From Candidatus Altimarinota bacterium (GTDB taxonomy: Bacteria > Patescibacteriota > Gracilibacteria > UBA1369), in contig OY782391.1 in assembly GCA_963677745.1 (NCBI GenBank), positions 192,448 to 256,447 of the forward strand: a DNA stretch of 64,000 nucleotides. The letters are read 5' to 3'. Both the position numbers and the translations under genes were made by a program. Positions 46,267-53,326 of this stretch are shown here, piece after piece (the stretch's first letter is position 1; the number at the start of each line of letters is the position of its first letter). The notes under the pieces are model-generated. The model was not told the origin of the DNA. It made no database searches and saw only the letters and a list, made by a program, of their open reading frames with translations.

Positions 46267-47079
46267 TTATAACGGACTGCGGATATGAGTTAAATCACTG
46301 CTACAGACGCTGGTATAAATCTGGGTCGTTCTGATGCTACTATGGCCCAGTAATTCCTGAACATAACGCAGATTCACTCCCGACCGCAACAGATGAGTAG
46401 CAAAACTATGCCTTAAAGCATGAAAAGAAGCCGGTTTATTGATCCCCGATAGTTTTAAGGCCCTCGCAAAAGCCAATTGTGGAGTTCTCACCGAGAGTTT
46501 CCCGCCTCTTTCACTTACAAACAAGTATTCTCCGGGTGGCTTCCCGGAGCACTCTGTTTTAATGTTCATCAGCAACCTTTCTGGCAACAATGTTACTCTC
46601 TGTTTTCGCCCTTTTCCGTGTACTACGCGAATTGTTTTCGTATAGAAATCAATGTCCCGCACTTTTATATTCACCAGTTCATTCACCCTCAGCCCTGCGC
46701 CATAGGCCAGCGCCATCATCAGCTGATGTTTGCGATTTTTCACATTTTTCAACAAAACAATTATTTCCCCATGCTGAAAGACAACCGGCACTTTCAAAGT
46801 CTTTTTGGCAAACTTGATACTGCTCGGGAAATCGCGATCCAGCGCCCACCGGTAAAAAAACTTGATCGCATTCAGATAAAGATTGACGGTCTGCGGTGAA
46901 TAGCCCTGATCACGCTTGGCAATCAGATAAGCTTCCACATTTTGCCGATGGGGAAATTGATAACAGTGATGATTTTTATCCAGATAATCACGGATACAGG
47001 CCATATATGCCTGATGTGTCCTTTCACTGTAGTTCTTCAGCCGGATCTGATCGGACATTTTTGTAAGATATTTGTACAT
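46267..47079 (-). CDS. intI: Tyrosine recombinase, integron-integrase-like but compact (270 aa, no IntI-specific insertion)
   Basis: Catalytic set is present: AGLRVNE (Arg), HGKGRKQR (Lys), HALRHSFATHLL (His-x-x-Arg), LLGHSS (His), TQIYTSV (Tyr). The C-terminal ...IRSPL and N-terminal YSERTHQAYMACIRDYL resemble IntI1 (...GVRSPLD; YSLRTEQAYVHWVRAFI, recalled from memory). Confidence 0.8.
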   Translation of the reverse strand: MYKYLTKMSDQIRLKNYSERTHQAYMACIRDYLDKNHHCYQFPHRQNVEAYLIAKRDQGYSPQTVNLYLNAIKFFYRWALDRDFPSSIKFAKKTLKVPVVFQHGEIIVLLKNVKNRKHQLMMALAYGAGLRVNELVNIKVRDIDFYTKTIRVVHGKGRKQRVTLLPERLLMNIKTECSGKPPGEYLFVSERGGKLSVRTPQLAFARALKLSGINKPASFHALRHSFATHLLRSGVNLRYVQELLGHSSIRTTQIYTSVCSSDLTHIRSPL

Positions 47080-47207
47080 CTATTTCCCCATAATTATTCA
47101 AACCCAAAATACTCCCGCAACCTGACCCCAGAATAAAATTTCCATAAAAACCTTCCTTCCCCCCACAATTTCGCCTAGAATGTCCAAAACTGCCCTCTAT
47201 CCCCAAA

Positions 47208-47232
47208 CCCTAACGCTAGACCGGAGTTGTGC
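47208..47232 (+). other. attI-like simple site (CCCTAAC - 11 nt - GTTGTGC), predicted crossover after G at 47226
   Basis: GTTGTGC at 47226-47232 is the exact reverse complement of the R'' core (GCACAAC) of the first attC. An inverted CCCTAAC box lies at 47208-47214. The site is 147 nt from the recombinase start. Confidence 0.6.
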
Positions 47233-47288
47233 AAAATTGAGAAATTATGTTATTAAAACACCCTGTACATATTTATAATGCATAGTAT

Positions 47289-47453
47289 ATGAAGAAAAAA
47301 TTGGAAAACAAGCCAGAGGGACCATACAGAACAAATGCTTTAGAAAAAGGAAAAGAACGTCCTTTATTAGAAAGAATCGCCTATTACATCGCTGATATTA
47401 GAAAATCAATAAAAGATAGCCAACCTGACTGGTACAAAAAATACGGCCTCTAA
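47289..47453 (+). CDS. Cassette 1 small ORF (54 aa), hypothetical
   Basis: ATG at 47289, TAA at 47451-47453: MKKKLENKPEGPYRTNALEKGKERPLLERIAYYIADIRKSIKDSQPDWYKKYGL. It is below the ORF-track cutoff. It ends 12 nt before attC1. Confidence 0.4.
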   Translation: MKKKLENKPEGPYRTNALEKGKERPLLERIAYYIADIRKSIKDSQPDWYKKYGL

Positions 47454-47465
47454 TTTCTCAACTCC

Positions 47466-47546
47466 GCACAACAGCGCCTGTGCGGTTTGGTTGCGACCTC
47501 TCCCAAATTGCCTGCGGGCAACTTCGCTCAGGCGCGACCGTTATAC
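47466..47546 (+). repeat. attC site 1 (81 bp, short class)
   Basis: R'' is GCACAAC and R' is GTTATAC. The inner arms CGCCTG/CAGGCG pair with asymmetric spacers (AG versus CGACC). Central hairpin TTGCC-TGCG-GGCAA. Confidence 0.8.
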
Positions 47547-47604
47547 GCAATAATTTTGAGAGGTCAAAAAAAGCGTTATGTAAGTTAATGTATTTTCAGA
47601 TAAT

Positions 47605-48312
47605 ATGAGAAAGAACATTTTGATCACAGGCATGCCAAGAAGTGGCAAATCCACCCTTCTTAAGAAAATAATCCCAAAATTTAATCCAAAAGTTGGTTTT
47701 GTGACTAATGAAGTTCGTAAAGACAACGAAAGAGTCGGTTTTGAATTAGAAACACATACCGGACAAAAAACTATGCTTGCACACGTGGACTTCATCACCA
47801 ACTTAAAAGTTTCAAGATATTTTGTAGAGATTAAAAATCTTGATGAAATAATACCAAGCGTAGATAAATTTAATGAGCACGATTTTCTTTTTCTTGATGA
47901 AATAGGACAAATGGAATTGTTCTCTGAAAAATTTAAATTTCTTGTCGAAAAATATCTAGATTCCCCTAATGTTTGTATTGCAGCCTTGTCAAAAGTTTAT
48001 AGTGATGAATTTATTGAAGCTATCAAAAGAAGAAACGATATTTTCCTATTTGAGATCACTGAAGAAAATCGCAATGGAAAAAAAGAATATCTTGAAACTT
48101 TATTGAGAAAAATAGCAAAAGCAAAAAGATATGTTTCTGAACCAAACAGATTCTCAATAAATCAAAATGAAGTTACTATTGCGACAGATCATGGCACAAG
48201 AATACTAACAAAACAAAAAGAAGAATGGATTTGCAATTGTAAATTCTTCAAAGAAAATAAAATATGTAGCCACGTCATTGCACTTGAAGAATATCTGAAA
48301 ATACATAGATAA
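47605..48312 (+). CDS. Cassette 2: THEP1-like NTPase fused to a C-terminal SWIM-type zinc finger
   Basis: Walker A GMPRSGKST and Walker B FLFLDEIG. The layout resembles the NTPase THEP1 family. C-terminus CNCKFFKENKICSH (CxCx9CxH). Confidence 0.7.
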   Translation: MRKNILITGMPRSGKSTLLKKIIPKFNPKVGFVTNEVRKDNERVGFELETHTGQKTMLAHVDFITNLKVSRYFVEIKNLDEIIPSVDKFNEHDFLFLDEIGQMELFSEKFKFLVEKYLDSPNVCIAALSKVYSDEFIEAIKRRNDIFLFEITEENRNGKKEYLETLLRKIAKAKRYVSEPNRFSINQNEVTIATDHGTRILTKQKEEWICNCKFFKENKICSHVIALEEYLKIHR

Positions 48313-48386
48313 AGTACGACCTCTTAAAATTACTTTCTCCTTTCAGTCGAACCACACTGCGCTCTCCTCCTTTCAGTCGTCGGGGC

Positions 48387-48522
48387 GTATAACAGCGCAA
48401 GTGCGGTTCCGCTCCCTTTGGTCGCTCCACCCAACTTTGGCTCCTCTCTTCCAGCAAGTGTGTAAATATTGTACACTTGCTGCGTTCGTAGCCAATGTTC
48501 GCACGTTGCGCGGGCGTTGTGC
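48387..48522 (+). repeat. attC site 2 (136 bp, long class)
   Basis: R'' is GTATAAC and R' is GTTGTGC. The arms CGCAAGTGCG / CGCACGTTGCG pair with bulges. Central hairpin GCAAGTGT...ACACTTGC. It is preceded by a 13-bp direct repeat CTCCTTTCAGTCG (48337 and 48367). Confidence 0.8.
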
Positions 48523-52059: not shown

Positions 52060-52074
52060 GTAATTTTCATTTTT

Positions 52075-52374
52075 ATGAAAGAAAAAACCATTAAAGAGAT
52101 TACAAGTTTAATCATGCTTCAAGCTAAAGAAAAAGGGTTCGGCATCACCCCGGAAGAAATAGATTTCCCGCGAAAAATCGCATCATTACATTCTGAGGTT
52201 ACGGAGGTTTATGATGCCTACAGAAAGAAGGGAATCAAGAGAACTGATTTAATCGGTAAGGAACTTTGCGATGTAATACAAAGGACATTACATTTATGCG
52301 GAGTTTTTAAGATAGACGTAGAGAAGGAAATTTTGAAAAAAATAAAAATCAATTCAAAAAGAAGTTGGAATTAA
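52075..52374 (+). CDS. Cassette 8b: MazG-like nucleotide pyrophosphohydrolase (small all-alpha NTP-PPase)
   Basis: 99 aa with the acidic helix pattern LHSEVTEVYDA ... GKELCDVIQRTLHL, typical of MazG-like domains. Confidence 0.6.
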   Translation: MKEKTIKEITSLIMLQAKEKGFGITPEEIDFPRKIASLHSEVTEVYDAYRKKGIKRTDLIGKELCDVIQRTLHLCGVFKIDVEKEILKKIKINSKRSWN

Positions 52375-52398
52375 TATTTGAAAGCTACTTATAACAGC

Positions 52399-52478
52399 GC
52401 CTATGTAGTTCGGCTGCGGCCTACCCAAATTGCCTGCGGGCAACCTCCCCCAAGCGGGGGCATTGGGAAAAACGCAGA
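52399..52478 (+). repeat. attC site 8 (80 bp, short class, degenerate R')
   Basis: R'' is TTATAAC. The body aligns with attC1 and attC7. The R' position reads ATTGGGA instead of GTTRRRY. Confidence 0.6.
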
Positions 52479-52481
52479 TTC

Positions 52482-53129
52482 CTATCCATTCAAAAATGCT
52501 TTTATCTTGTCTCTGCACTCGACACATAAAACCTCACCCCGTACATCAAAATAAGCAGCCCTACTATCCTCATCTTTAAACTCGGGATCATTCCAACCGC
52601 GATTCACCATTGGACAATATTTATTGTCTACAACTGCATTATGATGTTTGAGGCCAAATAAATGACCAAGTTCATGAATGATTACCGAGCGTGTTCGTCC
52701 AATAATTCTTTTTAGATCCTCTGTATTTGTAACACATCTGGCCTCAAGCGTAGTCACCAAAGCTGTCCCATTTATTCTGTCGGCGGTACCACCAGCCCTA
52801 AGCCCACGCACACTGATCATTTTGTCAGTGACTATTAAGCCGTGCCGTATTTGTGAGCCGAACCGATGTCGACGCATGGAATGGAGCACCTGTCCTATAT
52901 CTCTATGGACACCTTGGTCCGGAATTCCGTTGATCATGTTTCGGGTACCTAAAAAAACATCACAGGCATAAGCATCTGGTGATACTAAATCCTTTACCGA
53001 ATTCTGAGAAAAGATACGAATTTCGGAATAGGCACCGTCAAAAGCCGATAATGCCGGCTGGCACAACTTTTCTAATTCCTTATGCTCAAGCGCTGTGTCA
53101 AGCGGTAGGACAAGCAGGTTTTTTTGCAT
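52482..53129 (-). CDS. Cassette 9 (inverted): zinc metallopeptidase, metzincin/archaemetzincin-like
   Basis: HELGHLFGLKHH (HEXXHXXGXXH), followed by CPM and a distal CVEC pair. I chose the ATG at 53129. The longer track ORF (to 53315) runs into attC9. Confidence 0.65.
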   Translation of the reverse strand: MQKNLLVLPLDTALEHKELEKLCQPALSAFDGAYSEIRIFSQNSVKDLVSPDAYACDVFLGTRNMINGIPDQGVHRDIGQVLHSMRRHRFGSQIRHGLIVTDKMISVRGLRAGGTADRINGTALVTTLEARCVTNTEDLKRIIGRTRSVIIHELGHLFGLKHHNAVVDNKYCPMVNRGWNDPEFKDEDSRAAYFDVRGEVLCVECRDKIKAFLNG

Positions 53130-53151
53130 GATGCTGATTGTTAGAGCGAGT

Positions 53152-53180
53152 ACTCTATAACTTTCTTCACAAAATGTCAA
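53152..53180 (-). promoter_or_regulatory. Sigma-70 promoter candidate for the inverted cassette gene (TTGACA-17 nt-TAGAGT)
   Basis: On the minus strand there is a perfect -35 TTGACA (53180-53175) and a -10 TAGAGT (53157-53152) with a 17-nt spacer. The -10 is 23 nt upstream of the ATG at 53129. Confidence 0.55.
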
Positions 53181-53217
53181 TACCCAGAAAGCAACAAGGA
53201 AATGCCTTCTCTCCAAA

Positions 53218-53326
53218 CCATAACTGTGCGTTTCGGCTACGGTCCCACCCAAATGCTCGCGCGGTTTGGCACATCGTGCTAGCATTTTACCGTGCTTTGC
53301 ACTTCGAATATGCACGGACGTTAGGC
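53218..53326 (+). repeat. attC site 9 (109 bp, medium class)
   Basis: R'' is CCATAAC. R' is GTTAGGC, the canonical GTTRRRY. Same polarity as the other sites although the enclosed gene is inverted. Confidence 0.8.

Follow-up and report, generated by a model that had tools for sequence, protein, structure and literature searches.

Does a genome of the Candidate Phyla Radiation (CPR) carry an integron, and if so, is it an integron of a known kind? The question is raised by a 64,000-nt stretch of contig OY782391.1 (positions 192,448 to 256,447; hereafter the window, to which all position numbers refer), in which a tyrosine recombinase gene lies beside a run of small open reading frames (ORFs). 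A first-pass annotation had read this locus as a complete chromosomal integron with at least nine cassettes. Our analysis leads to a more qualified answer, namely that the locus is probably a sedentary chromosomal integron-type gene-capture platform of Candidatus Peregrinibacteria, worked by a divergently oriented recombinase of 270 aa that lacks the I2 domain of integron integrases (IntIs) and that would act on folded single-stranded sites.

A recombinase gene, an attI-like junction and at least ten cassettes

The annotation's basic description, a leftward tyrosine recombinase gene and rightward small ORFs that are each ended by a repeat of the form xxxxAAC...GTTxxxx, was confirmed at its coordinates. 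Below, R'' denotes the AAC box and R' the GTT box of a site. The components are as follows.

46267-47079, minus strand: tyrosine recombinase, IntI/XerA-like, the presumed cassette integrase (270 aa; PF00589; N-terminal SAM-like domain; catalytic R-K-H-R-H-Y; no I2 insertion).
47080-47232, plus strand: attI-like region, with the crossover point G|TT at 47226/47227, GTTGTGC at 47226-47232 and the motif TTCGCCTAGAAT at 47170-47181.
47227-47540, plus strand: cassette 1, ORF 47289-47453 (54 aa, no family); site C1 at 47466-47546, class A, 81 nt.
47541-48516, plus strand: cassette 2, ORF 47605-48312 (235 aa, NTPase_1 and SWIM); site C2 at 48387-48522, class B, 136 nt.
48517-49213, plus strand: cassette 3, ORF 48540-49067 (175 aa, weakly C39-peptidase-like); site C3 at 49071-49219, class B.
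49214-49657, plus strand: cassette 4, ORF 49275-49517 (80 aa); site C4 at 49528-49663, class B.
49658-50550, plus strand: cassette 5, ORF 49688-50515 (275 aa, VanW), its stop inside R''; site C5 at 50510-50556, minimal, 47 nt.
50551-51095, plus strand: cassette 6, ORF 50637-50957 (106 aa); site C6 at 50987-51101, class C, arms matching poorly.
51096-51473, plus strand: cassette 7, ORF 51123-51404 (93 aa, hydrophobic), its stop inside R''; site C7 at 51399-51479, class A.
51474-52053, plus strand: cassette 8, Nudix ORF 51499-52026 (175 aa); remnant site at 52034-52059.
52054-52462, plus strand: cassette 9, ORF 52075-52374 (99 aa); site C8 at 52389-52468, class A, R' decayed to ATTGGGA.
52463-53320, minus strand: cassette 10, reversed ORF 52482-53129 (215 aa, HExxH metzincin-like, weak Pfam matches); site C9 at 53212-53326, class C, with a decayed R''.
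53327-54800, plus strand: possible older cassettes with no recognisable sites and of uncertain membership in the array (94-aa ORF; Nudix 53650-54078; SOUL 54137-54790).

The attI GTT lies 147 nt from the end of the recombinase gene, and the array that starts there (47227-53320) holds at least ten cassettes of 314-976 bp each, bounded by nine hairpin sites of the form xxxxAAC...GTTxxxx and by a remnant of 26 nt. The predicted minimum of nine cassettes is thus borne out and rises to at least ten once the remnant is included; the cassette sizes and the two stop codons inside R'' (ORFs ending at 50515 and 51404) likewise agree with what had been described. The sites fall into length classes of about 81 nt (class A: C1, C7, C8), 136-149 nt (class B: C2, C3, C4) and about 115 nt (class C: C6, C9, with C5 as a minimal version of 47 nt). 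Nine of the ten cassette ORFs point away from the recombinase, with leaders of 21-86 nt, an arrangement that would suit a promoter located in the attI region. The G+C content across 47-54 kb is 0.34-0.40 as against 0.45-0.52 in the surrounding DNA, and the low values extend to about 54 kb, where there is a short remnant-like stretch (AAC...GTTATAT, 54084-54123). Two distal sites have decayed (C8, with R' ATTGGGA, and C9, with R'' TCCAAAC), which fits an age that rises away from attI.

Complementarity links each site to the next one

All seven junction pairs that the annotation had listed are present exactly as given: GTTGTGC/GCACAAC, GTTATAC/GTATAAC, GTTGTGC/GCACAAC and GTTGTCT/AGACAAC from attI to C4, then GTTATAT/AAATAAC (one mismatch), GTTGTGC/GCACAAC and GTTAAGT/ACTTAAC from C4 to C7. 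Overall, 7 of the 8 adjacent R'(n)/R''(n+1) pairs match at 3-4 of their 4 variable bases, and the complementarity extends to about 12 nt. Adjacent pairs have a mean of 8.5/12; the same sites paired with non-neighbours give 4.4/12, and GTT/AAC pairs drawn at random from the window give 3.05/12. Permutation of the partners gave p = 0.001 over 4 nt and p = 6e-5 over 12 nt, which excludes complementarity at the level of chance, an outcome that had been named beforehand as grounds for rejecting an integron. The exception is the pair C7 to C8, and it is accounted for by the remnant at 52034-52059 (ACTCAAC, 12 nt, GCTATAA), which lies between the Nudix and 99-aa ORFs and, when counted as a site, restores the chain and brings the array to at least ten cassettes. 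Its origin can be traced to an internal deletion of about 62 nt by comparison with an intact copy of the same cassette in a related genome (L005; loci from other genomes are designated by L numbers).

The 4-12 bases that follow each GTT pair with the bases that precede the AAC of the next site and not with those of their own site, as crossover at G|TT predicts. The same rule was found in nine other arrays (L003, L005, L007, L011, L024, L089, L092, L175 and L177). By itself the junction rule does not separate a cut at G|TT from its mirror image, in which the 5' box would be cut at AA|C; the mirror model was dropped on account of the solitary GTTxxxx half-site at the recombinase-proximal end of the array and of the homology between the window and L003, which covers the recombinase gene and the region upstream of it and ends at 47228, in the attI GTT. 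These sequence comparisons place the crossover within the invariant GTT. The proposed attI at 47226 stands on the same ground, given that its GTTGTGC pairs with R'' of C1, conservation with L003 ends at 47228 and the ...GA|GTT junction recurs across CPR loci.

The sites conserve a fold and their ends

Across 27 sites from 14 loci, the shared layout consists of xxxxAAC, one base, the first arm of an 11-bp stem, a loop that varies from 15 to about 130 nt, the second arm of the stem, 3-5 bases and GTTxxxx. The base after AAC is A in 26 of the 27 sites and the base before GTT is C in 22, neither of which was imposed by the scan. The AAC and GTT ends are invariant in the site table, and the 27 sites have 26 distinct stem arms that retain their complementarity. 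In an ungapped alignment of 17 sites, all 11 stem pairs show compensatory changes, and the observed covariation was reached in 0 of 500 shuffles; 94.5% of stem cells are paired as against 23-45% with a slid partner, a value that is partly circular in that these sites were chosen by stem complementarity. When 12 sites were chosen by covariance model instead, 81% of cells were paired and 7 pairs had compensatory changes, again reached by 0 of 500 shuffles. The sites therefore share with attC the R''/L''...L'/R' pairing that is kept as structure and not as sequence.

In other respects the expectation of attC-like sites, with an unpaired central spacer and extrahelical bases, was contradicted. In place of a roughly symmetric unpaired central spacer there is 1 nt (A) opposite 3-5 nt. 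The sites have no conserved extrahelical base. Their stems are uninterrupted or have one bulge, which may be in either arm: class B has a single bulged G in the 3' arm, and a few sites have one additional base in the 5' arm. Conversely, the sites beside three I2-bearing IntIs (Vibrio L082, L049 and L059) are classical: each arm has a spacer of 4-7 nt, and the 5' arm has extra bases. The sample is small, but within it the type of integrase matches the geometry of the sites. Mismatches in the stems are G.T wobbles on the bottom strand in 14 cases and on the top strand in 4, in sites that are not independent of one another, a weak hint that the bottom strand is the one that folds.

The class C sites (50987-51101 and 53212-53326, with the minimal C5 at 50510-50556) join a 5' arm resembling the one in L003:8168-8282 to a class A/B-type 3' arm. 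Since their two arms come from different types, the L arms of class C sites are unpaired; these sites look like chimeras or decayed sites, which G|TT crossover would not generate.

Another explanation for such hairpins would be repetitive extragenic palindromic (REP) elements, miniature inverted-repeat transposable elements (MITEs) or terminators that happened to accumulate in a variable region. In favour of this explanation, the sites are GC-rich hairpins that follow ORFs, and one site fits a terminator-like pattern. Dispersal of that kind, which the annotation had named as refuting an integron, was not seen. A covariance model, R1, built from 12 sites of three genomes, matched the window on the array strand only, with 0 matches in the other 55 kb and 0 in 1.02 Mb of 80 unrelated loci. 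All sites share one orientation, their AAC and GTT ends are invariant, and the chain of complementarity across cassettes (p = 6e-5) is not expected of scattered repeats, so that we give this explanation a negligible chance.

R1 is family-specific, missing class B sites, more distant CPR sites and canonical attCs, and was therefore kept only as a specificity control; with filters off it returned lower scores and still missed the long class B sites. A strict structural scan over 1.61 Mb gave 56 matches as against 6 in shuffled sequence, and the convincing CPR matches, judged by stem geometry and the chain rule, all lie upstream of a homologous recombinase and on the opposite strand. Three other scanners were discarded: 7-mer L box and regular-expression versions missed most sites, and a relaxed gapped-stem version returned about 80 matches per window strand. 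The possibility of pdif modules was ruled out, as the sites are direct repeats of hairpins and not alternating XerC/XerD sites. No Rfam family reached its gathering score anywhere in the 64 kb, hence there are no tRNA, rRNA or riboswitch matches; for the sites, where chance matches appeared at E up to 10, this search is uninformative, because Rfam has no attC family.

The recombinase is integrase-like in fold and has no I2 domain

The I2 domain is described as defining IntIs and as needed for their activity (Messier & Roy 2001, as cited in PMC9668308). It reads the extrahelical bases of the folded attC, and the accepted account of how integrons arose is that a Xer-like ancestor gained this domain (PMC7790495, PMC9668308), the gain being held to be the step that enabled recombination of folded single-stranded sites (PMC7790495).

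The window recombinase matches PF00589 (E = 3e-43) as well as PF13495, and its catalytic residues are conserved. Among solved structures, the best match to its AlphaFold model (pLDDT 85) is VchIntIA (PDB 2a3v; E = 1e-17, 31% identity), followed by archaeal XerA. In the alignment to 2a3v, residues 4-176 correspond to 5-180 and residues 200-270 to 247-317, leaving about 45 IntI residues with no counterpart; the gap is the IntI-specific I2 region, query 176-200 standing opposite 180-247. Likewise, insertions of about 32 and 11 aa that are present in the three I2-bearing IntIs mentioned above are missing from the window protein and its CPR relatives. Every curated cut-off is missed by this protein, for IntI and Xer alike. 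The integron-integrase models TIGR02249 and PRK15417 score 200 against 265 (in two stretches) and 146 against 435, and the Xer models score 214.4 against 220 (XerA_Arch NF040815, the top NCBIfam model), 176 against 335 (XerC) and 162 against 330 (XerD). A C-terminal (R/K)SPL motif is common to the window recombinase and the I2-bearing IntIs in our alignment; to our knowledge, E. coli XerC and XerD do not have it.

These observations bear directly on the simplest reading of the locus, that of an ordinary IntI acting on ordinary attC sites, unusual only in its CPR host. The R boxes, the G|TT crossover, the cassette sizes and the stops inside R'' would all fit, as would the best structural match to VchIntIA. 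Against this, the protein lacks the IntI-specific insertion and does not reach the curated IntI cut-offs, and the geometry of its sites is unlike that of the sites beside true IntIs in L082, L049 and L059. A canonical integron is excluded because the recombinase does not qualify as an integron integrase, and we consider it very improbable. The term complete integron therefore holds for part of the locus, the recombinase, the attI-like junction and the G|TT array, and fails for the rest, in view of the absent I2, the missed IntI cut-offs and a site layout that is not that of a canonical attC.

Cassettes differ between relatives, and recombinase and array are lost or gained together

A dnaA gene at 40537-41982, about 5 kb from the array, encodes a protein 78-79% identical to NCBI proteins of Candidatus Peregrinibacteria, which bears out the earlier suspicion of a CPR-type host; judged by this sequence identity, the host is a Candidatus Peregrinibacteria bacterium. 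The recombinase is found on a contig of 1.34 Mb, and the flank beyond its gene holds genes for a C39 peptidase, pyrH, frr, rseP and dnaA; the array is chromosomal.

Close relatives were found by exact-protein look-ups of the recombinase and of DnaA. In three of them (L003, L005 and L169), with recombinases 72-73% identical to that of the window and a syntenic flank, the arrays hold entirely different genes, encoding acetyltransferases, PadR/DUF1048, SDH protease, HIT, abhydrolase, RibD_C, SET and other proteins. Arrays that differ in cassette content among relatives, which had been proposed as something to look for, are thus seen. The window and L169 have the three site classes in common and no ORFs. 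Over 596 nt, the Nudix cassette (51474-52053) shares 85% identity with one in L005 whose site is intact, the homology spanning the interval from the preceding GTT to the cassette's own site, with different neighbours on both sides. Such comparisons indicate that the cassettes are probably mobile units exchanged between genomes.

In a further relative (L174, a 220-kb contig with DnaA 81% identical), GroEL abuts the pyrH-side flank, and the recombinase and the array are both absent from the locus, so that the two come and go together. The region between the array and GroEL in L003 is likewise missing from L174.

These results also weigh on a second alternative, in which the array is a cluster of attC sites lacking integron-integrases (CALIN), moved in trans by an integrase encoded elsewhere or immobile, and the neighbouring gene is a housekeeping Xer recombinase of CPR bacteria. 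Consistent with this alternative, the top-scoring model for the protein is archaeal XerA (214 bits, just under the cut-off of 220), thousands of Patescibacteria members of about 270 aa exist, as for a housekeeping gene, and the distal sites have decayed. However, the adjacency, the divergent orientation and the ...GA|GTT junction are conserved across lineages whose recombinases are 40-73% identical, the L174 locus is without both recombinase and array, the gene lies near dnaA and not at the terminus, and the 64 kb contain no second tyrosine recombinase. We therefore regard a CALIN beside a housekeeping Xer as unlikely, and prefer an array that is served by its adjacent recombinase.

Several observations around these loci may be noted in their own right. 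In L174:4549-7654 the msrA/msrB and C39 peptidase genes are also missing, the whole block of about 10 kb being an insertion/deletion polymorphism. The C39-peptidase-like gene of the window (45799-46263) directly follows the recombinase gene at its 3' end; L003 has it as well, L169 does not, and L005 probably has it too, in the form of a 171-aa gene at the same position that has no Pfam match. The product of cassette 3 is itself weakly C39-like.

In L007, with a recombinase 64% identical and a different chromosomal context, there are four sites. A unit of about 7 kb in that locus (L007:1985-9161), delimited by R' GTTATAC and R'' GTATAAC, encodes a type I restriction-modification (R-M) system (HsdR, HsdM/S) and a DUF2254 protein; it would be a very large cassette, in agreement with the defence systems reported in chromosomal integrons. 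Directly 5' of R'' GTATAAC, a 43-nt stretch is 97.7% identical between the window (48352-48394) and L007 (1978-2020), although the recombinases are 64% identical and the cargo of the two cassettes differs (NTPase-SWIM in the window, type I R-M in L007). Both of these cassettes start with GTTATACGCAAT, and part of the 43-nt stretch, CTCCTTTCAGTCG, is duplicated in the window at 48336-48375.

The same architecture recurs across CPR lineages

The recombinase belongs to a family with thousands of homologues of about 270 aa and about 50% identity, of which the named ones are from Patescibacteria, Parcubacteria and similar groups. At every CPR-type locus with enough upstream sequence, there are sites upstream of the recombinase gene, on the opposite strand, that obey the chain rule. 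These loci include L011 (Peregrinibacteria, 47% identity), L024, L089, L090, L091, L092 (three sites in chain), L106, L117, L175 (a 505-kb Patescibacteria contig) and L177/L178 (Parcubacteria); across the CPR loci with this architecture, recombinase identities are 40-73%.

Comparison with 13 further CPR loci showed, in most of them, the ...GA|GTT junction and a motif resembling TTCGC(A/C)TA(A/G)AAT. The motif precedes the attI GTT by 5-55 nt (window 47170-47181 and 13 loci), and in L091, L092 and L106 it occupies the place that TTCGC has in the 3' arm of a site (TTCGC-N9-10-GTT). It may serve as a binding box for the recombinase, as a -10 promoter element or in both ways; the conserved TAGAAT/TAAAAT/TATAAT-like part of attI could be the -10 box.

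The resemblance between attI and the 3' half of a site is also a point for a third alternative. Here the recombinase would play a dual role as the cell's single Xer, and the array would consist of elements like integrative mobile elements exploiting Xer (IMEX), inserted as folded single strands at a dif-like site. The protein is indeed Xer-like and without I2, and integration of the CTX type proceeds by a single strand exchange on a folded hairpin whose centre is unpaired (PMC7790495). On the other hand, the units of the array are promoterless single-gene cassettes with integron-type R boxes and not autonomous elements, no inverted repeat of 28 bp resembling dif was recognised at attI, and the element is missing from the L174 locus. 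By eye, and with no dedicated search, no dif (a 6-8-bp centre flanked by two inverted arms of about 11 bp) was recognised in the attI regions of 14 loci. We judge such a dual role distinctly unlikely and continue with a recombinase devoted to cassettes.

Sites of this type also occur outside CPR. The locus L023:9953-17335, in a metagenome-assembled genome (MAG) of Ignavibacteriota, has nine strict sites downstream of an I2-less recombinase gene and on the strand of that gene, an inverted layout that is shared by L093:1933-8154, where three sites in chain (GTTATCA to TGATAAC) lie beside an I2-less recombinase. A third non-CPR locus, L157, has the same site geometry by an I2-less recombinase, and single strict matches were found in L042, L043, L050 and L058, with Bacteroidota loci included among the single matches. 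The non-CPR sites have the same AAC-A-11 bp...11 bp-NNNC-GTT geometry.

Among the matches listed, many CPR contigs stop 10-600 nt upstream of the recombinase gene (L009, L010, L012-L016, L024, L172 and L173), and the contigs of L001 and L002 both break within window site C2. Contig ends at this place are expected if variable arrays break assemblies. This suggests that such arrays are a routine cause of breaks in metagenome assemblies and that MAGs under-represent them; the arrays may also account for the frequency with which CPR assemblies break just upstream of this gene.

Taken further, the data allow a broader proposal, which we put forward tentatively and hold with less confidence than the reading of the window itself. 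The locus could belong to a large unrecognised integron lineage that never had I2 or has lost it, and whose sites have an asymmetric loop of 1 x 3-5 nt in place of extrahelical bases. This lineage would be the normal partner of the XerD-like recombinase of about 270 aa across Patescibacteria/CPR, would occur as well in Ignavibacteriota and probably Bacteroidota, and would be missed by current tools, since these rely on the IntI-specific domain.

A model for cassette movement

In the model that we favour for the window, the recombinase would insert and excise cassettes of the form TTxxxx...ORF...hairpin site...G, by recombination between the G|TT of the attI-like site beside its gene and the G|TT of each hairpin site. 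Since the sites keep structure and not sequence, folded single-stranded sites are the most likely substrate. The recombinase would bind the folded site as a pseudo-core site, one arm of which would be the R box (7 bp, and up to about 12 bp in an excised circle) and the rest the 11-bp stem. A single cut would be made at G|TT and the product would be resolved by replication; by analogy with classical integrons and with Xer-dependent CTX-phage integration, a single strand exchange resolved by replication is the most likely course. The loop of 1 x 3-5 nt would take the place of the unpaired spacer and the extrahelical bases, marking the strand and blocking a second exchange. The recombinase as catalyst, single strands as substrate and the strand used are all inferred.

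Several points weigh against this model. The first is the absence of I2 itself. A canonical IntI or a second Xer could be encoded elsewhere in the genome, of which the window covers 64 kb. Bottom-strand folding, which the annotation had proposed as a check, gave a divided outcome: compared with shuffled sequences, C1, C2, C3 and C7 fold significantly (z = -2.5 to -3.6), and C4, C5, C6, C8 and C9 do not, so that only 4 of the 9 window sites are significant. The class C sites (C6 and C9) have mismatched arms, the distal sites are decayed, and the highest pairing value comes from sites selected for pairing. No convincing sigma-70-type promoter was found in 47080-47290 by a scan that does not cover CPR promoters. 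Lastly, the evidence that cassettes move is comparative, with neither excised circles nor alternative cassette orders from one population.

Implications

If the model is correct, I2-less recombinases with arrays that follow the junction rule offer a natural test of whether I2 is needed and of the state that preceded it. Should this state be ancestral, cassette capture via folded single-stranded sites would predate the acquisition of I2, which is now held to be the key innovation of integron integrases. Integron-type gene capture would also be extended to CPR bacteria, whose genomes are tiny and whose acquisition of genes is poorly understood. A full-text literature search of limited coverage found no description of integron-type elements in CPR, and an earlier description may exist elsewhere; a 2021 review lists the integron-bearing phyla without Patescibacteria (PMC8618304). 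In a 2026 study, 97% of contigs with integron-type recombinases were not called complete by IntegronFinder, a novel attC being one of the suggested causes (PMC13323075). Our results suggest that a whole class is systematically overlooked when surveys rely on IntegronFinder, which fits this excess of recombinases without detectable attC.

Comparison with known systems

Close parallels include the sedentary chromosomal integrons, such as the Vibrio superintegron (IntIA and the Vibrio cholerae repeats, VCR), in which a tyrosine recombinase is likewise divergent from an array that starts at an attI, runs in one direction and consists of single-ORF cassettes, mostly without promoters. Further points in common are boxes resembling RYYYAAC and GTTRRRY, the G|TT crossover, sites conserved in structure and the presence of site classes within an array, and the kinds of cargo (Nudix proteins, acetyltransferases, toxin-antitoxin and restriction-modification systems) are the typical ones. 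Unlike these integrons, the locus has no I2, an unpaired 1 versus 3-5-nt spacer instead of a roughly symmetric one of 4-7 nt, an uninterrupted 11-bp stem with no conserved extrahelical bases, R-box complementarity that reaches about 10-12 nt, and a CPR host.

As with the integrons of archaea (Ghaly et al. 2022, PMC9668308), the arrays occur in uncultivated lineages with small genomes and are known from metagenome-assembled genomes. The archaeal integrases are reported to have the IntI-specific domain and the archaeal attCs the bacterial fold (PMC9668308), whereas here both the integrase domain and the site fold differ.

XerA and XerC/D resemble the window protein as two-domain tyrosine recombinases of about 270 aa without I2, and in the CTX phage an I2-less Xer (XerC) performs a single exchange on a folded single-stranded hairpin with an unpaired centre (PMC7790495). 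In contrast to XerA, the window protein scores below the XerA cut-off, is attached to a multi-cassette array and is absent from one close relative (L174) at this locus. Because IntegronFinder needs an IntI-specific profile, it would call the array a CALIN at best, provided that its attC model matched the sites; unlike a CALIN, the array is accompanied, in many lineages, by a cognate-looking recombinase and an attI-like junction.

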